DNA of 64,000 nucleotides from Spirochaetia bacterium. Its GTDB lineage: Bacteria > Spirochaetota > Spirochaetia > DSM-16054 > Sediminispirochaetaceae. Shown piece by piece: positions 30,001 through 39,000 of this stretch. Location: NCBI GenBank assembly GCA_034520965.1, contig JAXHMY010000002.1, positions 480,001-544,000 of the forward strand. The letters run 5' to 3'. The position numbers are program-made. Every line of letters starts with the position of its first letter. Within the stretch, counting starts at the first letter, position 1.

Positions 30001-33000
30001 AGTCTCGGGGGGTGCAACTATATGAAGAATACGGTACTTTTGTGCGTATCCAGCCTGGTCCTCAGAGGCTTCGGTTTCAGTGGGCTGGATAGCAAGACTG
30101 GCGCCAATGTTTTTTATCTGGTCGATGGTTTCGATTTTTTCGTGGGGGCCTTCGTAATTGATAAACTCAATTTGTGCATCTGAGACACTTTCGAGTTCTT
30201 CCTCAACAATATCAACGGCACCAATGAAAACCGGCACTACGAGCAGTAGGGCTAATAAAAAATGAGTTCTTTTCATACTTATAGAGTATAACATGCTCTT
30301 TGGGTGAGTTCATTAACAAAACTGATGAATTTTGATAATGAATTTCGATGATGGTTTTTGAAGATGGTTTTTTATTGTGGCTGTGCGAGCTCCCGCAGGG
30401 TTTGTATGGCCAACCGGCGCAGCGAACGCGGTGCATCGGACCGATAAATATGCATGAGGCTGTTTATGGCATCCGTCCCGACTGTTCCGCTGTAGGTGCA
30501 TACGGCTTTGATACTGCGAATTATTTCTAAGGTCAATAAGGGGTTTTTGGTAATGGGTATTTTTTTACTTTTGACTTTGTTTCTTAGTGTTTTAAGGACT
30601 TCGCCGGATAGATCGCTTTGCAGGCTGCCGATAGCCCTGATTATCTGCAGTTGTGCCTGGGCATCCCATTCATAATCCAGCATTTCCAGCAGAAACTGCT
30701 GACTGGCCAGGGTTCCATACTTTCCAAGCAACTCAACCGCCTGAGCACGGATTTCGGGAAAGTCGTTAATGTAAGCCCCGTTTCGGCGTACCGGGTTAAG
30801 TACCCCTACTCCGGCCGCTTTTGTGAGGAGGACGAGCAGGCCGGGATAATTTTTTGCAGCAGAGCTTTTTTCTAAGCGAGCGTTTAGTTCTTCCATTAAC
30901 ATCTGGTACTGCGATCTGCCGCCCTCTTCAAGCAGGACCTGCTCCGCCGTGGAAAGTGTGTTGGCTGGAAAGCTGTGAAGGGACGGCAGAGGGAGATGTT
31001 TCGGGTTGAGATGTTCCGGGAGAGGCTGCTTCGAAGGGCTCCCGGGACTGAGAAAACTATATACCACCCAGTCTTGGCCTCCGATTATGATTCGTCCTGA
31101 ATCAAGGATCAGCGGAGGTACCGCCGGCTGCGGTATGGGGCGGTCGCTTAGGAGGCTCCCGGTTTCTGTTTCGTAGGCTCTGATTGAATGTTGGTTATAT
31201 ACCAGGAGCGTCTCGATGTTTTGTTGTTGTAAGGTATTAACCGGTTTACTGTGCACGGCGAGCTTAGCGGAGTCCATGGAGATACGTGTATTCCAGAGTT
31301 CGGCCCCTGAGCGGCTGTCGATAGCGGCAATTCGTTGGTCGCCGGTACGCACATACACCCTCGCCGCGCCCAAGCTTATATCTTCGGCGGTAGAAAAGAG
31401 GTCGGCCTTCCATAAAAACTCACCGGTCTGGCTGTACATTCTGATATTACCACCGGTTGCAAGGGCTACCCGACTATGAGAGGCGGAGATTACCGCCGGA
31501 CTGCTGCCGGCGGTCTGAGAGAGTTTGTTGCCGAGGCCTTTGCCGACGGGCACACGCAGGCTGATTCCGGAGGCATCGATGCGCAGCAAGTCACCTTCCC
31601 TGGAGAAGATCCATATCGAGCCGGAGGGGTCGACCTCCGGCGGGGAGGAGGCCTGAAGCTCAGCCTGTTCTTGCCAAATAAGCTGACCGGTATGGGTGTA
31701 CAGAGAGATACTCTGTTCGCTGAGAGTGTAGAGCAGCCCGCTGTGCCCGGGAAGGAGCCACTGGGTTGGGGGCGAAGAGTCGGCGCTTTTCAATTTCCAT
31801 ATGAGCCCGCCGGAGGGGTTAAGGGCGGCGAGGTTACCAGGTTCCAGGATGCTGTAAAGTGTTCCGTCGGGGCTGCGCTGCAGGAAGGGCTGGGGACGGC
31901 CCTTCAGACGGGGACTGCGCTGGAGCAGAACCCCGTCGGCGCGGAGTGAGTAAAGGCGGCGGTCTTCGGATATAAGGTGTACGACTTCGGACCCTGAGCT
32001 GAAGGCGGCAGTGAGGGCCAGTACCCGGCCTCCGGTTGCGTACTTCCACTCCAAGGCCATTTGTTGCGTGCCGGGGGGCAGTTCTTCGGAAGTGGCTGAA
32101 AACGGCTGAGCTGGGAGAGGCGCTGCAGCTGAATAGAGCCCCGAGAAATATAGTAAGAGCATTATCCCCCAAAAATATGATCCGGAAAAAGAGAGGCAGC
32201 TGCGGGATATTTTCTTGCTATTATTGACTTTTCCCATTTTCTTAAGTACCGTTATTGCGAATATGGACAGTATAGCCGCATACGCTCCCGGCCATGTGAC
32301 CGGGATATTTTTTATTGACGACCTCGATACGGACCCTCTGAAACGCGGCTCCCTGGGGGCCGGATTCTCAATAGATTTTGGAGCGACTACCCGAATCTCT
32401 GCTGAGGACAGCATACCCGAAACCGGGCTATCGAAGGCCGTCCCACGCTTTCTTTTAAATGGAAAGCCGAGCGAGCTGGATGTGTCGGCTGCCGTTTATA
32501 CCCATTTTATAGAATCACAGCCGAATTTACCATACACAGGGCTGACAATTTCGCACAAGATCGATTTGCCCCAGGGCAGCGGTTTTGGTACCAGCGGGGC
32601 TGGGGCCTTGAGTCTGGCGCTGGCTTTGAATAAGTGGTACGGCGAACCTTTTTCCAATGAAGAGGCTGCTCAGTTTGCCCATCGCGCCGAGGTTGAGTGT
32701 AAAACAGGGCTGGGTACAGTGATCGGTGAGTACTATGGGGGGGTTGAGATACGAACAAGGACCGGAGCCCCGGGAATTGGCAAGGTCACTCAGATTCCCT
32801 ATCCGAAGGACCTGCGGGCGGTGTGTGCCGTGCGCGGCCCCTATTCTACCAGCAAGGCTCTCTCTTCACCAGCGGTCCGGGACGTGGTGAACCTCCATGG
32901 AAAGAATGCCCTCGACGGTCTCCAGCACGAACCGAGTGTGGGCAATTTTCTGCGATACTCCCGGCAATTTGCCGAGGGAACCGGTTTATTTACTCCCTGG

Positions 33001-36000: not shown

Positions 36001-39000
36001 TTTTTCCGGGCTTTTTGCGAGTTACCCTGATGCCGCACTTGAATCAAAGCCATCTGGAGAACTTTTTAATGGTGCTGGAAGCGACATTAAATGAGATGCA
36101 AAAGGAAGAGTCCGGCCCCGGAGAAACTGGCCCCGAGTCCAGTCGCGGGCACAACAGCCGCTTACACAGGAACCAAGGAGAAAATAATGCAGGGTGATCA
36201 ATCTCATTCAAATCAGCCTTTTTTTACTTACCCTGAACAGGCGGTCGCCCCTCCTAATGGGGCGGCCTCCCCGTTGGGGAAGCATCCGTCAAAAGATATT
36301 CTCGGTTCTATCTCGAGTGCTCTAGGTGGAAAGAAAGTTGCCCTTGGAATTACCGGCAGTGTGGCGGCCGTGCGCAGCAGTGAGGTAGCCCGGATGCTGA
36401 TGCGCTACGGAGTGGAAGTGTTTCCGGTGATGAGTCCAGAGGCGACCCGTATCATTCACCCGAACTTGATGGAGTGGGCAACCGGGAACCCTGTGATAAC
36501 CAGCCTCAGTGGTTCTATAGAGCATGTAGCCTTAGCGGGGAATGTTGAAAATCGGGTAGATGCAGTGCTAATAGCACCATCTACCGCCAACACCCTGGGA
36601 AAAATTGCTGCCGGAATTGACGATACGCCGGTTACCACTTTGGCAACCACCGCAATCGGCCAGGGAATACCAATGCTGATTGTCCCTGCGATGCATGAAC
36701 CTATGTATTACCATCCGGCGGTAAAACGAAACATTGAGGTGCTAAAAAGCGACGGTATCCATGTGCTTATGCCTAATGTCTCAGAAGGAAAGGCTAAAAT
36801 TCCGGAAACCGAAGAGATTGTTTTTCGAACGATTGATTTGCTGCGCGGCGACGGCCCCCTGGCCGGCAGCAATTGGGTGGTGACGGCCGGACGCACGGTA
36901 GAATACCTCGATCCCATCCGGGTGCTTACCAATAACAGCAGCGGAAAAATGGGGATAGAAATTGTAAGAGCCCTTTATCTGGCCGGGGCAGGCGTGCAGT
37001 TAGTCTACGGTAAGGGTAACGCTGAACCGGTGCCAAATGTTCCCACACACTATGTAGAGACAGCCGCACAAATGCTGGATACAGTGAAAAAACTGTTACA
37101 GGACCAAAAGACCGACTGCCTGGTAGCGGCAGCGGCGGTCGGTGATTGGCAGTCCTCGGACCGGGCTGCCGATAAAATCAGCACCCACGGTACCGACAAG
37201 CTTAAAGTAGAATTAGTTCCTACTCCAAAGATCATCGACCAGGTAAAGGAGATATCTCCCCACACCTTTTTAGTTGCCTTTCGGGCCCTTTTTCAGAAAA
37301 CGAAGGAAGAGATGGCGTCGGATGGACTGGCCCGCATGAAAAAAGCCAAAGCGGATATGATAGCAGTAAACGATGTCGGGGCGAAAGGCTCGGGTTTTGA
37401 AACCGCCACCAACGAGCTGCATCTGTTTGACTCCGCCGGCGGACGGACGCACATTAAACTATCCACAAAGTTTCAGGCGGCGGAACAGTTAATAAAGGTG
37501 GTTGCGGCTCAGTTAGGGCGCGTTTAAGTACGCCTAGGAGTACGCTTAGGCCCGGAGAAACTCATCGACAATAGAGTCGACATCATCCTGTTCAATATCA
37601 AACTGCCTTTCGAAGGCCAGTTCCTGGTTCGCTTCACGAAGCTTCTTTAGCAGACTATACACGGTTACCATTAAGATCTTATTACCGGTGGTAGGATACT
37701 TTTTAATAAATTGCATAAAATTGCCGCGTGTAATATGCAGCAATGCGGTGCTTGTTAAACTGTTTACATTGGCTGTGCGTTTTACCTTCATAAACATACC
37801 GGCCTCGCCGAATACTTCCCCGCTGCCGATGGTGCAAATATAGACGTTTTTACGCCGCCCTTCCCCTACAGCTACTTCAACGGAACCGCTAATTACTCCA
37901 TAAAAGGCCTGCTCCACCTCGCCCTGCTGTACGATGCGCTCACCCTCTTCAAAGACTTGTATTTCGCACATCCTGAGCAAATCTTCAACTTCCCGTTCGC
38001 TTAGAAACTTGAACAGCAAGATATCCCTAATACTGGCCCGATATTGATCGGTATTATTATCAACGTACATAAAACGTCCCCTCTTGTACAAAATGCCTCA
38101 CAAAATGCCTCATAAACGCCTAAAGTGTAGCGTATTCAGCTGTTCTACGCAAGAAAGCGACACTCTGTTTTTAATGGACATTTAGAACATTTTTGATTTT
38201 TAGCGGTGCAATACCTTTTTCCATGTTCTACCAACAGGGCATGGAACTCGTTGTATACTTCGGCATCGACCGGTAATTCCGCCTGGAACTTAGCCTGCAA
38301 CCCCATGTAGGTCCACTCACCCTCCTCTGATCCGCTCCGGTACTCGAGGCGATTAAAAATTCTCATACTGTACGCATCTACCACACAAACCGGATAATTA
38401 AAGGCATATAGAAGAATGGAATCAGCCGTTTCCGGGCCTATGCCCCAGATTGCTAAAAGTTCCTTCCGACCAGGGGGCGTCTCATTGGCCGCACCTCGCG
38501 CCAGAAAAAAATCGGCAGTAGTTTTTAACTTTTTCGCCTTTTGGTTGTAATACCCGCTCGAACGTATCAAAGCGGCCAGGTCAGTGTGCTCGGCTGCACG
38601 GAAAAACTCCGGGCCGAAGGGACAATTCTCCAGCAGGGTCGTTAAACTACTACGTACATTGGCCCAGTTTGTATTTTGTGTGAGAATAGCTCCGGTAATA
38701 ATTTCAAAGCGCTCATTCGAGCTCAGTTCAAGGGAGTACACGCCGGGGTGGTAGCCCTCTTGGGTATAGCCGGGTCGGGAGTTACGCTGCAGCAGCGGCC
38801 ACCATCCCTGAGCTCCATATGCATTTAGCAGGCGTTGGTATACATTGTAACTGTTCATTTTTTCCATCTTTAAAGGTTTGTATTTTAAAAAAGAGGCCCT
38901 TGCAGGCCTCCTGTTAAGTAATTCTCTTTATAAAAACCTTTTACATTTTTACACAATGCTGAAATTGTGTCTTAAACTGTGGACCACAGAGCCCCTGCTG

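Follow-up and report, generated by a model that had tools for sequence, protein, structure and literature searches.

An archaeal-type gene cassette for coenzyme A biosynthesis in Spirochaetia

Introduction

The closest described counterpart of the locus reported here is the coenzyme A (CoA) pathway of Thermococcus kodakarensis which, in the accessible text of PMC6650551, comprises pantoate kinase (PoK), phosphopantothenate synthetase (PPS), the PLP-dependent aspartate decarboxylase TK1814 and the CoaBC protein TK0517 (PDB 6jbc, 3wdk). TK1814, an MfnA enzyme, is reported to be the sole aspartate decarboxylase of this archaeon (as cited in the available part of PMC10102598). PoK/PPS and the PLP-dependent aspartate decarboxylase have been used so far as markers of archaeal metabolism. 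A bacterial exception is nevertheless known, since sponge-associated Poribacteria carry PoK and PPS in place of PS/PanK, together with a bacterial DPCK (Thomes and Lescure 2020, PMC7883664). The available portions of that paper contain no mention of spirochaetes and leave aside the beta-alanine step, gene order and where CoaBC came from. Replacement of the pyruvoyl enzyme PanD by a group II PLP decarboxylase also has bacterial precedents in PanP of Vibrio fischeri and DVU0867 of Desulfovibrio vulgaris, two aspartate decarboxylases known from rescue of E. coli panD, the latter being less than 30% identical to PanP and TK1814 (PMC10102598, available part). As described there, these enzymes belong to other subfamilies and work with PanC, whereas the spirochaete enzyme is MfnA-type and encoded beside PPS.

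A literature search returned nothing joining pantoate kinase with spirochaetes or Cloacimonadota with phosphopantothenate, and one bacterial case by title among the pantoate kinase matches listed. The surprise is limited, as these enzymes were already known and so was an occurrence of PoK/PPS in bacteria; the initial annotation of the locus had itself pointed to a published bacterial case, which the accessible text on Poribacteria bears out. What is added here concerns beta-alanine formation and the archaeal type of CoaBC.

Structure of the cassette and proposed pathway

The window analysed is a 64,000-nucleotide stretch from the genome of a Spirochaetia bacterium. At 32263-37527 it contains five adjacent, tightly coupled open frames on the same strand, listed below with the flanking genes, both of which lie on the opposite strand.

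30372..32414, minus strand: divergent flanking gene outside the cassette, beta-propeller/HEAT-repeat protein (Pfam PQQ_2 and HEAT_2; true start uncertain)
32263..33213, plus strand: PoK, pantoate kinase, a GHMP kinase (316 aa; best PDB match 6jbc)
33213..33983, plus strand: PPS, phosphopantothenate synthetase (4-phosphopantoate--beta-alanine ligase; 256 aa; PF02006, NF010324; single copy in the genome)
33986..34801, plus strand: PanB, ketopantoate hydroxymethyltransferase (271 aa; NF001452 and TIGR00222 above cut-off)
34860..36197, plus strand: MfnA/TK1814-type PLP-dependent decarboxylase, putative aspartate 1-decarboxylase (445 aa, TTG start; TIGR03812)
36187..37527, plus strand: archaeal-type bifunctional CoaBC, phosphopantothenoylcysteine synthetase/decarboxylase (446 aa from the ATG at 36187, frame open from 36091; TIGR00521)
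37546..38091, minus strand: convergent flanking gene outside the cassette, cyclic-nucleotide-binding protein, followed by endonuclease III-like and pyruvate phosphate dikinase-like genes

Successive junctions consist of a 1-base overlap, a 2-base gap, a 58-base gap and an 11-base overlap. This layout agrees with the five-gene operon first proposed, and its spacing would fit co-transcription. A promoter scan gave one site against 4.6 expected, and terminator-like matches were many and unspecific. In one metatranscriptome, contigs of relatives about 89-90% alike cross the PoK/PPS, PanB/decarboxylase and decarboxylase/CoaBC junctions, but they cannot show co-transcription because contigs also cross the convergent end. 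The GC content of the five genes (0.52-0.55, genome 0.50) and their GC3 (0.53-0.59 against 0.54 +/- 0.09) match those of the genome.

Very probably, the cassette is an ancient one of archaeal descent that has since been inherited vertically and supports synthesis of 4'-phosphopantetheine in the archaeal sequence of steps, with bacterial CoaD and CoaE finishing CoA. PanB would convert ketoisovalerate to ketopantoate, and an unlinked PanE-family reductase or IlvC, encoded outside the operon, may then yield pantoate for phosphorylation by PoK with ATP. The MfnA-type PLP enzyme would form beta-alanine from aspartate, PPS would join it to phosphopantoate to give 4'-phosphopantothenate, and CoaBC would add cysteine and then decarboxylate, leaving completion of CoA to the CoaD and CoaE of the host, encoded elsewhere.

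Bacterial-type CoaD and CoaE were each found in five of five genomes, and the archaeal dephospho-CoA kinase (DUF359) in none of the five, although the control matched in four archaea. These bacterial last steps make the route a hybrid, archaeal only as far as phosphopantetheine. The operon has no gene for the ketopantoate reductase step, and panE and ilvC of this genome are each in two frames. The archaeal route at first attributed to the family therefore stands for PoK/PPS in place of PanC/PanK, which is supported, and, most likely, for an MfnA-type decarboxylase in place of PanD; it does not extend to the bacterial CoaD and CoaE or to the reductase.

Like T. kodakarensis, as described in the accessible text, the cassette combines PoK, PPS, an MfnA-type decarboxylase, PanB and a fused CoaBC, without PanC, PanD or PanK. 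It differs in having a bacterial host, with CoaD and CoaE where the archaeon uses an archaeal PPAT and a TK1697-type kinase. The cassette encodes nothing close to the CoA-inhibited archaeal reductase described there, which raises the question of where feedback acts and how these bacteria regulate CoA synthesis when PanK is missing.

Distribution in Spirochaetia

PPS is present in 14 of 16 relatives, as the initial annotation had stated. In a class survey of 401 Spirochaetia genomes, drawn evenly and not at random, it was found in 54 genomes from 11 of 58 families; PanC was also found in 54, never together with PPS. Type III PanK accompanies 8 of the 54 PPS-positive genomes against 283 of the 347 PPS-negative ones. 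Because kin genomes are not independent, these and the other co-occurrence counts of the survey are overstated. According to the available text of PMC7883664, coexistence of both routes had not previously been described; in these eight spirochaetes it is type III PanK, never PanC, that occurs alongside PoK/PPS. Records from Cloacimonadota and Heimdallarchaeota show the same gene order plus a ketopantoate reductase. What had been taken as a trait of one family is thus true of that family without being confined to it, PPS occurring in 11 spirochaete families and the gene order being shared by Cloacimonadota. Annotation seeking only PanC, PanD and PanK would miscall such bacteria as pantothenate auxotrophs or as incapable of making CoA.

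Decarboxylase and beta-alanine supply

The decarboxylase scores 409.8 bits against TIGR03812 (cut-off 299.4), reproducing the initial assignment, and only 105 of 606 bits against the PanP model TIGR03799. Its best solved matches, 6jy1 and 3f9t (E 6e-75), extend over nearly the whole length, and the PLP lysine Lys258, His142, Asp215 and Tyr286 are invariant in all 19 rows chosen for the alignment. Both structures are of MfnA from Methanocaldococcus jannaschii, where the enzyme also supplies tyramine for methanofuran; the spirochaete context points to CoA only.

Among relatives the enzyme is above cut-off in 10 of 16, close to the 11 of 16 first counted; in addition, the gene is divided between two contigs in G009 and spread over two frames in G003. 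Across the class it is above cut-off in 35 of the 54 PPS-positive and 3 of the 347 PPS-negative genomes, and all 35 copies lie within a CoA gene cluster. The PPS-positive genomes divide into 34 with the decarboxylase only, four with PanD only, one with both and 15 that lack PanD as well as an intact decarboxylase. This gene context, distribution and near-exclusion with PanD suggest aspartate as the physiological substrate.

PoK and PPS could be correctly assigned while the decarboxylase serves mainly to make an amine or osmolyte from another amino acid, tyrosine or glutamate, and is carried along with the cassette, beta-alanine coming from uptake or another route. MfnA-family enzymes do also act on tyrosine, to go by the PDB names of the closest solved relatives (tyrosine/aspartate decarboxylases). 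The gene can have other uses, since G092 keeps it at the same locus without PPS or PanC, and in G132 it adjoins a betaine-type (OpuAC-type) ABC transporter. Ten PPS-positive genomes of family f15 have neither the decarboxylase nor PanD, and none of the four tested has a PF00282 enzyme; another source of beta-alanine therefore exists in the class. We nonetheless consider this explanation unlikely, given that the enzyme sits inside a CoA cluster in 35 of the 38 genomes that have it, that PanD stands alongside in only one of those 35, and that no N-carbamoyl amidohydrolase above cut-off was found in this genome or in the single-contig relative G015. To our knowledge, methanofuran, the tyramine sink of methanogens, has not been reported from spirochaetes. 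The cassette raises the matter of MfnA-type substrate preference outside methanogens.

For G004, a relative without the decarboxylase, a supply of beta-alanine from uracil was considered but found no support: three amidohydrolases were above cut-off, but at two of the three loci no pyrimidine-reduction genes were present among the neighbours scanned.

Pantoate kinase and phosphopantothenate synthetase

The two best models of the first gene product are both pantoate kinase models (E 1e-43 and 8e-36). It falls below both NCBIfam cut-offs (NF041122, 149.6 of 500; NF040725, 123.4 of 380), models whose names suggest narrow archaeal lineages. The T. kodakarensis pantoate kinase 6jbc is the best solved match by sequence (E 8.7e-39) and by fold (E 5e-29, TM 0.83), the next GHMP kinases being far lower. 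Outside family f1 the kinase gene directly precedes PPS in 41 of the 42 regions, and the remaining one falls at a contig end. The 6jbc match and the gene position identify it as a PPS-linked GHMP kinase orthologous to PoK.

The active site of the T. kodakarensis enzyme, which we take to consist of Ser28, Ser104, His131, Glu134, Asp143 and Thr186, is kept in five of six positions, Asp143 being replaced by Thr152. Asp143 is reportedly essential in the archaeal enzyme. In an alignment of 27 chosen rows, this position is Thr in 13 of 13 spirochaetes, the one Cloacimonadota sequence and 5 of 13 archaea, including Nitrososphaera and Bathyarchaeia records, and Asp in seven and Ser in one of the remaining archaea; Ser30, Ser111, His140 and Thr196 do not vary, and Glu143 hardly does.

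Such a Thr-type kinase might be inactive on pantoate, in which case PPS would take pantoate or a salvaged intermediate and a pantothenate kinase would carry out the phosphorylation. The substitution, the scores below cut-off and the type III PanK kept in eight PPS-positive genomes would fit this hybrid scheme. It is very improbable, however, because coaX is deleted in this genome, type III PanK was not found in 46 of the 54 PPS-positive genomes, the kinase gene stands immediately before PPS, and some archaeal homologues share the Thr while the other active-site residues are invariant or almost invariant. The activity of Thr-type PoK is a question that bears on Nitrososphaera and Bathyarchaeia as well.

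PPS itself is assigned by PF02006 (238.6 bits, cut-off 26.4) and NF010324 (347.5 bits, cut-off 227), with NF041123 just below its cut-off (292.5 of 300). Its solved matches are 3wdk (E 4.5e-71) and 4mb0 (E 2.2e-69), and Arg18 and Arg40 belong to the columns that do not vary across all 18 chosen rows.

Absence of the bacterial genes

PanC and PanD were each found in none of the 17 family genomes and type I PanK in none of five, while type III PanK is absent from this genome and from G015 and present in 5 of 16 relatives. These results repeat what was first claimed for PanC, PanD and PanK, the PanK absence covering types I and III, as the type II search was silent even in controls and hence uninformative. 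The flanks of a relative's coaX (type III PanK) map 7 bases apart in contig C2 of this genome, with 675 bases missing and no N; the relative's own copy keeps only residues 86-268. This absence is no assembly gap, because the syntenic site is present and cleanly deleted. Type III PanK, by now dispensable, may be in the course of being lost in this genus.

Completeness of 85.94%, contamination of 2.85% and several genes in two frames could suggest a binning or assembly artefact, in which a spirochaete contig had been fused with archaeal DNA and bacterial genes were missing through incompleteness, but this is hardly credible: the cassette has spirochaete genes (P83/100 family) on both sides in a contig of 611,713 bases, its flanks recur in relatives and in G015, where the five-gene order is the same, synteny in G015 and in 14 genomes of four other families refutes it, a 2175-base contig of a public run (possibly the source sample) spans 32080-34254 with 6 differences, and the coaX site is there, deleted. 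The incompleteness first named as a possible refutation thus did not overturn the finding.

Origin of the cassette

The presence of the five-gene cassette as a fixed trait of many spirochaete families implies that the bulk of the pathway can be exchanged between domains as a unit. The cassette would have replaced the bacterial panB-panC-coaBC-coaX set. Tentatively, and with more doubt than confidence, we suggest that the ancestor of much of Spirochaetia acquired the whole archaeal CoA operon (PoK, PPS, PanB, decarboxylase and CoaBC) in a single ancient transfer. Such an event would have displaced the bacterial set in at least 11 families. From it these bacteria would have gained the aspartate decarboxylase of archaea and pantoate kinases of a subfamily working without the catalytic aspartate. 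As PanK is gone and the cassette includes no archaeal reductase, CoA feedback would then act at an undescribed point. The beta-propeller/HEAT-repeat neighbour is common to families f1, f27, f33 and f29, and the gene order downstream of the cassette is conserved in f1 and f33. PPS had no match in a plasmid collection.

CoaBC scores 329.6 bits against TIGR00521 (cut-off 219.7). The CoaBC of 15 PPS-positive spirochaetes make up a single clade (99/99). A 100/98 split places this clade with the archaea and sets it apart from 12 named bacteria and four PPS-negative spirochaetes. Identity is 49% to two archaeal (Asgard-labelled) records against 30-34% to the 12 named bacteria. The CoaBC was first described as Thermococcus-like; its archaeal type holds, but the likeness to Thermococcus lay outside the trees, which held no Thermococcus CoaBC; the nearest archaeal sequences examined are the Asgard-labelled ones. 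A clade of all spirochaete CoaBC was rejected by the AU test (p 1.9e-43), and a division of all bacteria from archaea only at p 0.032. An earlier AU test left the all-spirochaete clade standing (p 0.443); it used six PPS-negative rows, either long or partial, and included no further bacteria.

In its tree PanB groups with PanB of Bathyarchaeia, Asgard-labelled records and Cloacimonadota, apart from that of most PanC-positive spirochaetes. The backbones of the PPS and PoK trees are without resolution; one starred branch joins the PPS of family f1 with two Bathyarchaeia.

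Organization of the cassette

Five open frames follow one another on contig C2 (611,713 bases) of the genome under study, G000, whose completeness is 85.94%. Their positions in the window are:

32263-33213, + strand, PoK (pantoate kinase), open frame
33213-33983, + strand, PPS (phosphopantothenate synthetase), open frame
33986-34801, + strand, PanB, open frame
34860-36197, + strand, MfnA-type decarboxylase, open frame (TIGR03812 score 409.8, cut-off 299.4)
36187-37527, + strand, CoaBC, open frame

The first two frames overlap by 1 base, the next two junctions are gaps of 2 and 58 bases, and the last two frames overlap by 11 bases, a spacing that fits the operon described in the initial annotation. 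Since the upstream neighbour is divergent and the downstream neighbour convergent, the five genes form a closed unit, and a tblastn search found one copy of each in G000. Curated cut-offs of profile models were exceeded by PPS, PanB, the decarboxylase and CoaBC. PPS scored 292.5 with the narrower model NF041123, slightly below the cut-off of 300, and is 65-95% identical in named records labelled Spirochaetaceae, Sediminispirochaeta or Sediminispirochaetaceae. A hairpin of 7 pairs with a weak T tail lies at the panB 3' end (34792-34809), at the operon's sole sizeable gap.

The top models for the PoK gene were two pantoate kinase models, both scoring below cut-off. Its top solved match by sequence was the pantoate kinase of T. 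kodakarensis (E 8.7e-39), which was also the best Foldseek match of the predicted fold (pLDDT 93.6; E 5e-29, TM 0.83), and a kinase gene lies 5' of PPS in 41 of 42 regions outside the family Sediminispirochaetaceae. Thr152 of the window protein aligns with Asp143, an essential residue of the T. kodakarensis enzyme (position counted from the alignment); this substitution is a real caveat on the predicted pantoate kinase role. Thr occupies the position in 13/13 spirochaete, 1/1 Cloacimonadota and 5/13 archaeal rows of the alignment, so Thr-type proteins form a natural subfamily of putative pantoate kinases.

Predicted pathway

Judged from similarity and gene context, the cassette would most likely make phosphopantetheine by the archaeal step order. 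PanB would act first, followed by an unlinked reductase and then PoK; PPS would next use beta-alanine supplied by the PLP decarboxylase, CoaBC would follow, and bacterial CoaD and CoaE would complete CoA. These steps are proposed because they follow the pathway established in T. kodakarensis, as given in the available part of PMC6650551. The same part places the CoA feedback target at PanK in bacteria and at the reductase in T. kodakarensis; neither lies within the window cassette.

The decarboxylase family is active on tyrosine too, and this, together with its persistence outside a CoA setting, is a real caveat on the predicted aspartate role. Genome G092 retains the gene though PPS and PanC are absent; it has type III PanK, and CoaBC was without match. 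Its cassette locus (L250:8951-11699) holds the decarboxylase alone, then a 497-aa frame without family match. Genome G132, with PanC and PanK present and PanD not found, carries two MfnA-type genes, neither in a CoA cluster (L252:4187-8418 and L251:7662-8795), one of them upstream of a glycine-betaine-type ABC transporter. Against other uses, the decarboxylase lies within a CoA cluster in 35 of the 38 genomes carrying it.

Absent and bacterial steps

Across the 17 family genomes, G000 included, and with controls as expected, PPS was found in 15, type III PanK in 5, and PanC and PanD in none; type I PanK was found in 0/5 genomes. PanC and PanD are missing from G000, as first proposed, and its type III PanK gene is deleted. 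Bacterial CoaD and CoaE occur in 5/5 genomes and the archaeal kinase DUF359 in 0/5, so the final two CoA steps are bacterial. The initial reading of an archaeal CoA route is real and right in outline; the route is more hybrid and more broadly distributed than was stated.

Genome incompleteness (86%), raised at the outset as a possible refutation, does not account for the missing type III PanK, since the site of its gene, coaX, is present in C2 and the gene is cleanly deleted. Sequences on either side of coaX in relative G007 match C2:347932-346643 and 346635-345304 at 88-90%; between the two matches G000 has 7 bases and no N, against 675 bases in G007. The G007 gene is itself truncated, aligning over residues 86-268 only, and coaX is full-length in four relatives. 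Clean deletion in G000 and truncation in G007 are gene loss in progress.

PanE-family and IlvC genes are encoded away from the cassette. The reductases of archaeal and Cloacimonadota cassettes have distant matches alone in G000 (about 20-21% over the main stretch). Three G000 genes, one of them a cassette neighbour, are each split over two frames, which suggests assembly indels. These sites and the coaX deletion are:

C2:346635-346643, outside the window, coaX deletion, from alignment of the G007 flanks
window 28698-30294, - strand, P83/100-family gene (cassette neighbour)
C8:103853-104795, ilvC
C3:518608-519450, a panE

Distribution across Spirochaetia

PPS, PanC, type III PanK and TIGR03812 were searched in the same 401 evenly drawn Spirochaetia genomes (completeness at least 85%), in which counts are not frequency estimates. 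PPS occurs in 54 genomes (five of them single-contig) from 11 of 58 families, and PanC in 54 others, with zero overlap. Type III PanK is present in 8/54 PPS-positive versus 283/347 PPS-negative genomes, and TIGR03812 exceeds its cut-off in 35/54 versus 3/347. Kin genomes are not independent, and p-values for co-occurrence are therefore not given. The PanD search covered the 17 family genomes plus 45 others (42 PPS-positive outside the family, 3 PPS-negative with the decarboxylase). Among the 54 PPS-positive genomes, 34 have the decarboxylase alone, 4 PanD alone, 1 both and 15 neither. Ten PPS-positive genomes of family f15 (e.g. loci L168, L185, L164) are without PanD and MfnA-type enzyme; there a PF00282 decarboxylase was found in 0/4 genomes and an amidohydrolase over cut-off in 0/2. 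CoaBC over cut-off is absent from four of five PPS-negative, PanK-positive spirochaetes (G050, G055, G343, G092), which may reflect pantetheine salvage.

PoK and PPS are known from sponge Poribacteria (Thomes and Lescure, PMC7883664). The available part of that paper leaves beta-alanine, gene order and spirochaetes aside. PLP-dependent aspartate decarboxylases of other subfamilies were demonstrated in Vibrio and Desulfovibrio (PMC10102598, available part). A literature search, with most subscription journals outside its scope, returned no report of the route in spirochaetes or Cloacimonadota, nor did a term search of the available text of PMC12236494 and PMC6375133 find it described. Spirochaete proteins are already named MfnA and PPS in public annotation, and the NCBI listing includes a PPS-family protein from a cultured strain, Spirochaeta thermophila DSM 6578 (P0241). 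New here are the whole-cassette replacement, including the MfnA-type enzyme and archaeal CoaBC, the strict exclusion between PPS and PanC, and the visible decay of coaX.

Gene order and origin

The five-gene order recurs in 9 of 10 fetched family regions; among the family regions one has the decarboxylase in two frames, another is cut by a contig end, and relative G004 lacks the decarboxylase. Beyond the family, 14 of 42 regions share it (f24, f27, f29, f33); f45 and f51 have shortened versions, decarboxylase included. Family f15 has PoK-PPS-CoaBC-PanB, with a divergent reductase in most. In f6 (L158, L160) PoK-PPS lies a few kb from bacterial-type PanB, split CoaB/C and PanD, a hybrid cluster; PanC and type III PanK were searched in these genomes and neither was found. 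In most of the 17 regions fetched from PanC-positive spirochaetes, panB, panC, coaB/C and coaX stand together as a mirror cluster. Cloacimonadota show PPS-reductase-PanB-decarboxylase-CoaBC at 7 of 8 loci, and three Heimdallarchaeota loci show PoK-PPS-PanB-reductase-decarboxylase, with CoaBC next in two.

Every tree was computed under LG+G4, with no mixture model, and the archaeal rows came from the best 80 of 383 PPS matches, with no Thermococcales, methanogens or haloarchaea among them. The CoaBC tree (49 rows) has a 100/98 split. On one side are 12 named bacteria together with 4 spirochaetes without PPS; on the other are 16 archaea, 2 Cloacimonadota and a single clade (99/99) of 15 PPS-positive spirochaetes. 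A clade of all spirochaete CoaBC, not rejected in an earlier test lacking bacterial outgroups (p 0.443), was rejected (p 1.9e-43); a bacteria-versus-archaea topology was rejected more weakly (p 0.032). A starred group unites the window PanB with Bathyarchaeia, Cloacimonadota and two Asgard-labelled records; of the 16 PanB from PPS-negative spirochaetes, 14 lie apart from it, and f15 PanB is placed outside this group. Spirochaete monophyly was not rejected, which is no proof of it, in reduced sets for the decarboxylase (p 0.74, 28 rows), PPS (p 0.19, 41 rows) and PoK (p 0.80, 37 rows). In a quick PPS tree, four Sediminispirochaetaceae join two Bathyarchaeia on a starred branch.

Cassette flanks common to Sediminispirochaetaceae, f27, f33 and f29, and a GC3 typical of the G000 genome, point to an old insertion. 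A 374-aa frame at 26935-28059 (- strand), with a homologue in locus L016, shows weak similarity to an IS1-family transposase (E 3.6e-5). PoK-PPS was also seen in a record labelled Saccharibacteria (L076), and two divergent PoK-like genes in an Asgard-labelled record (L080).
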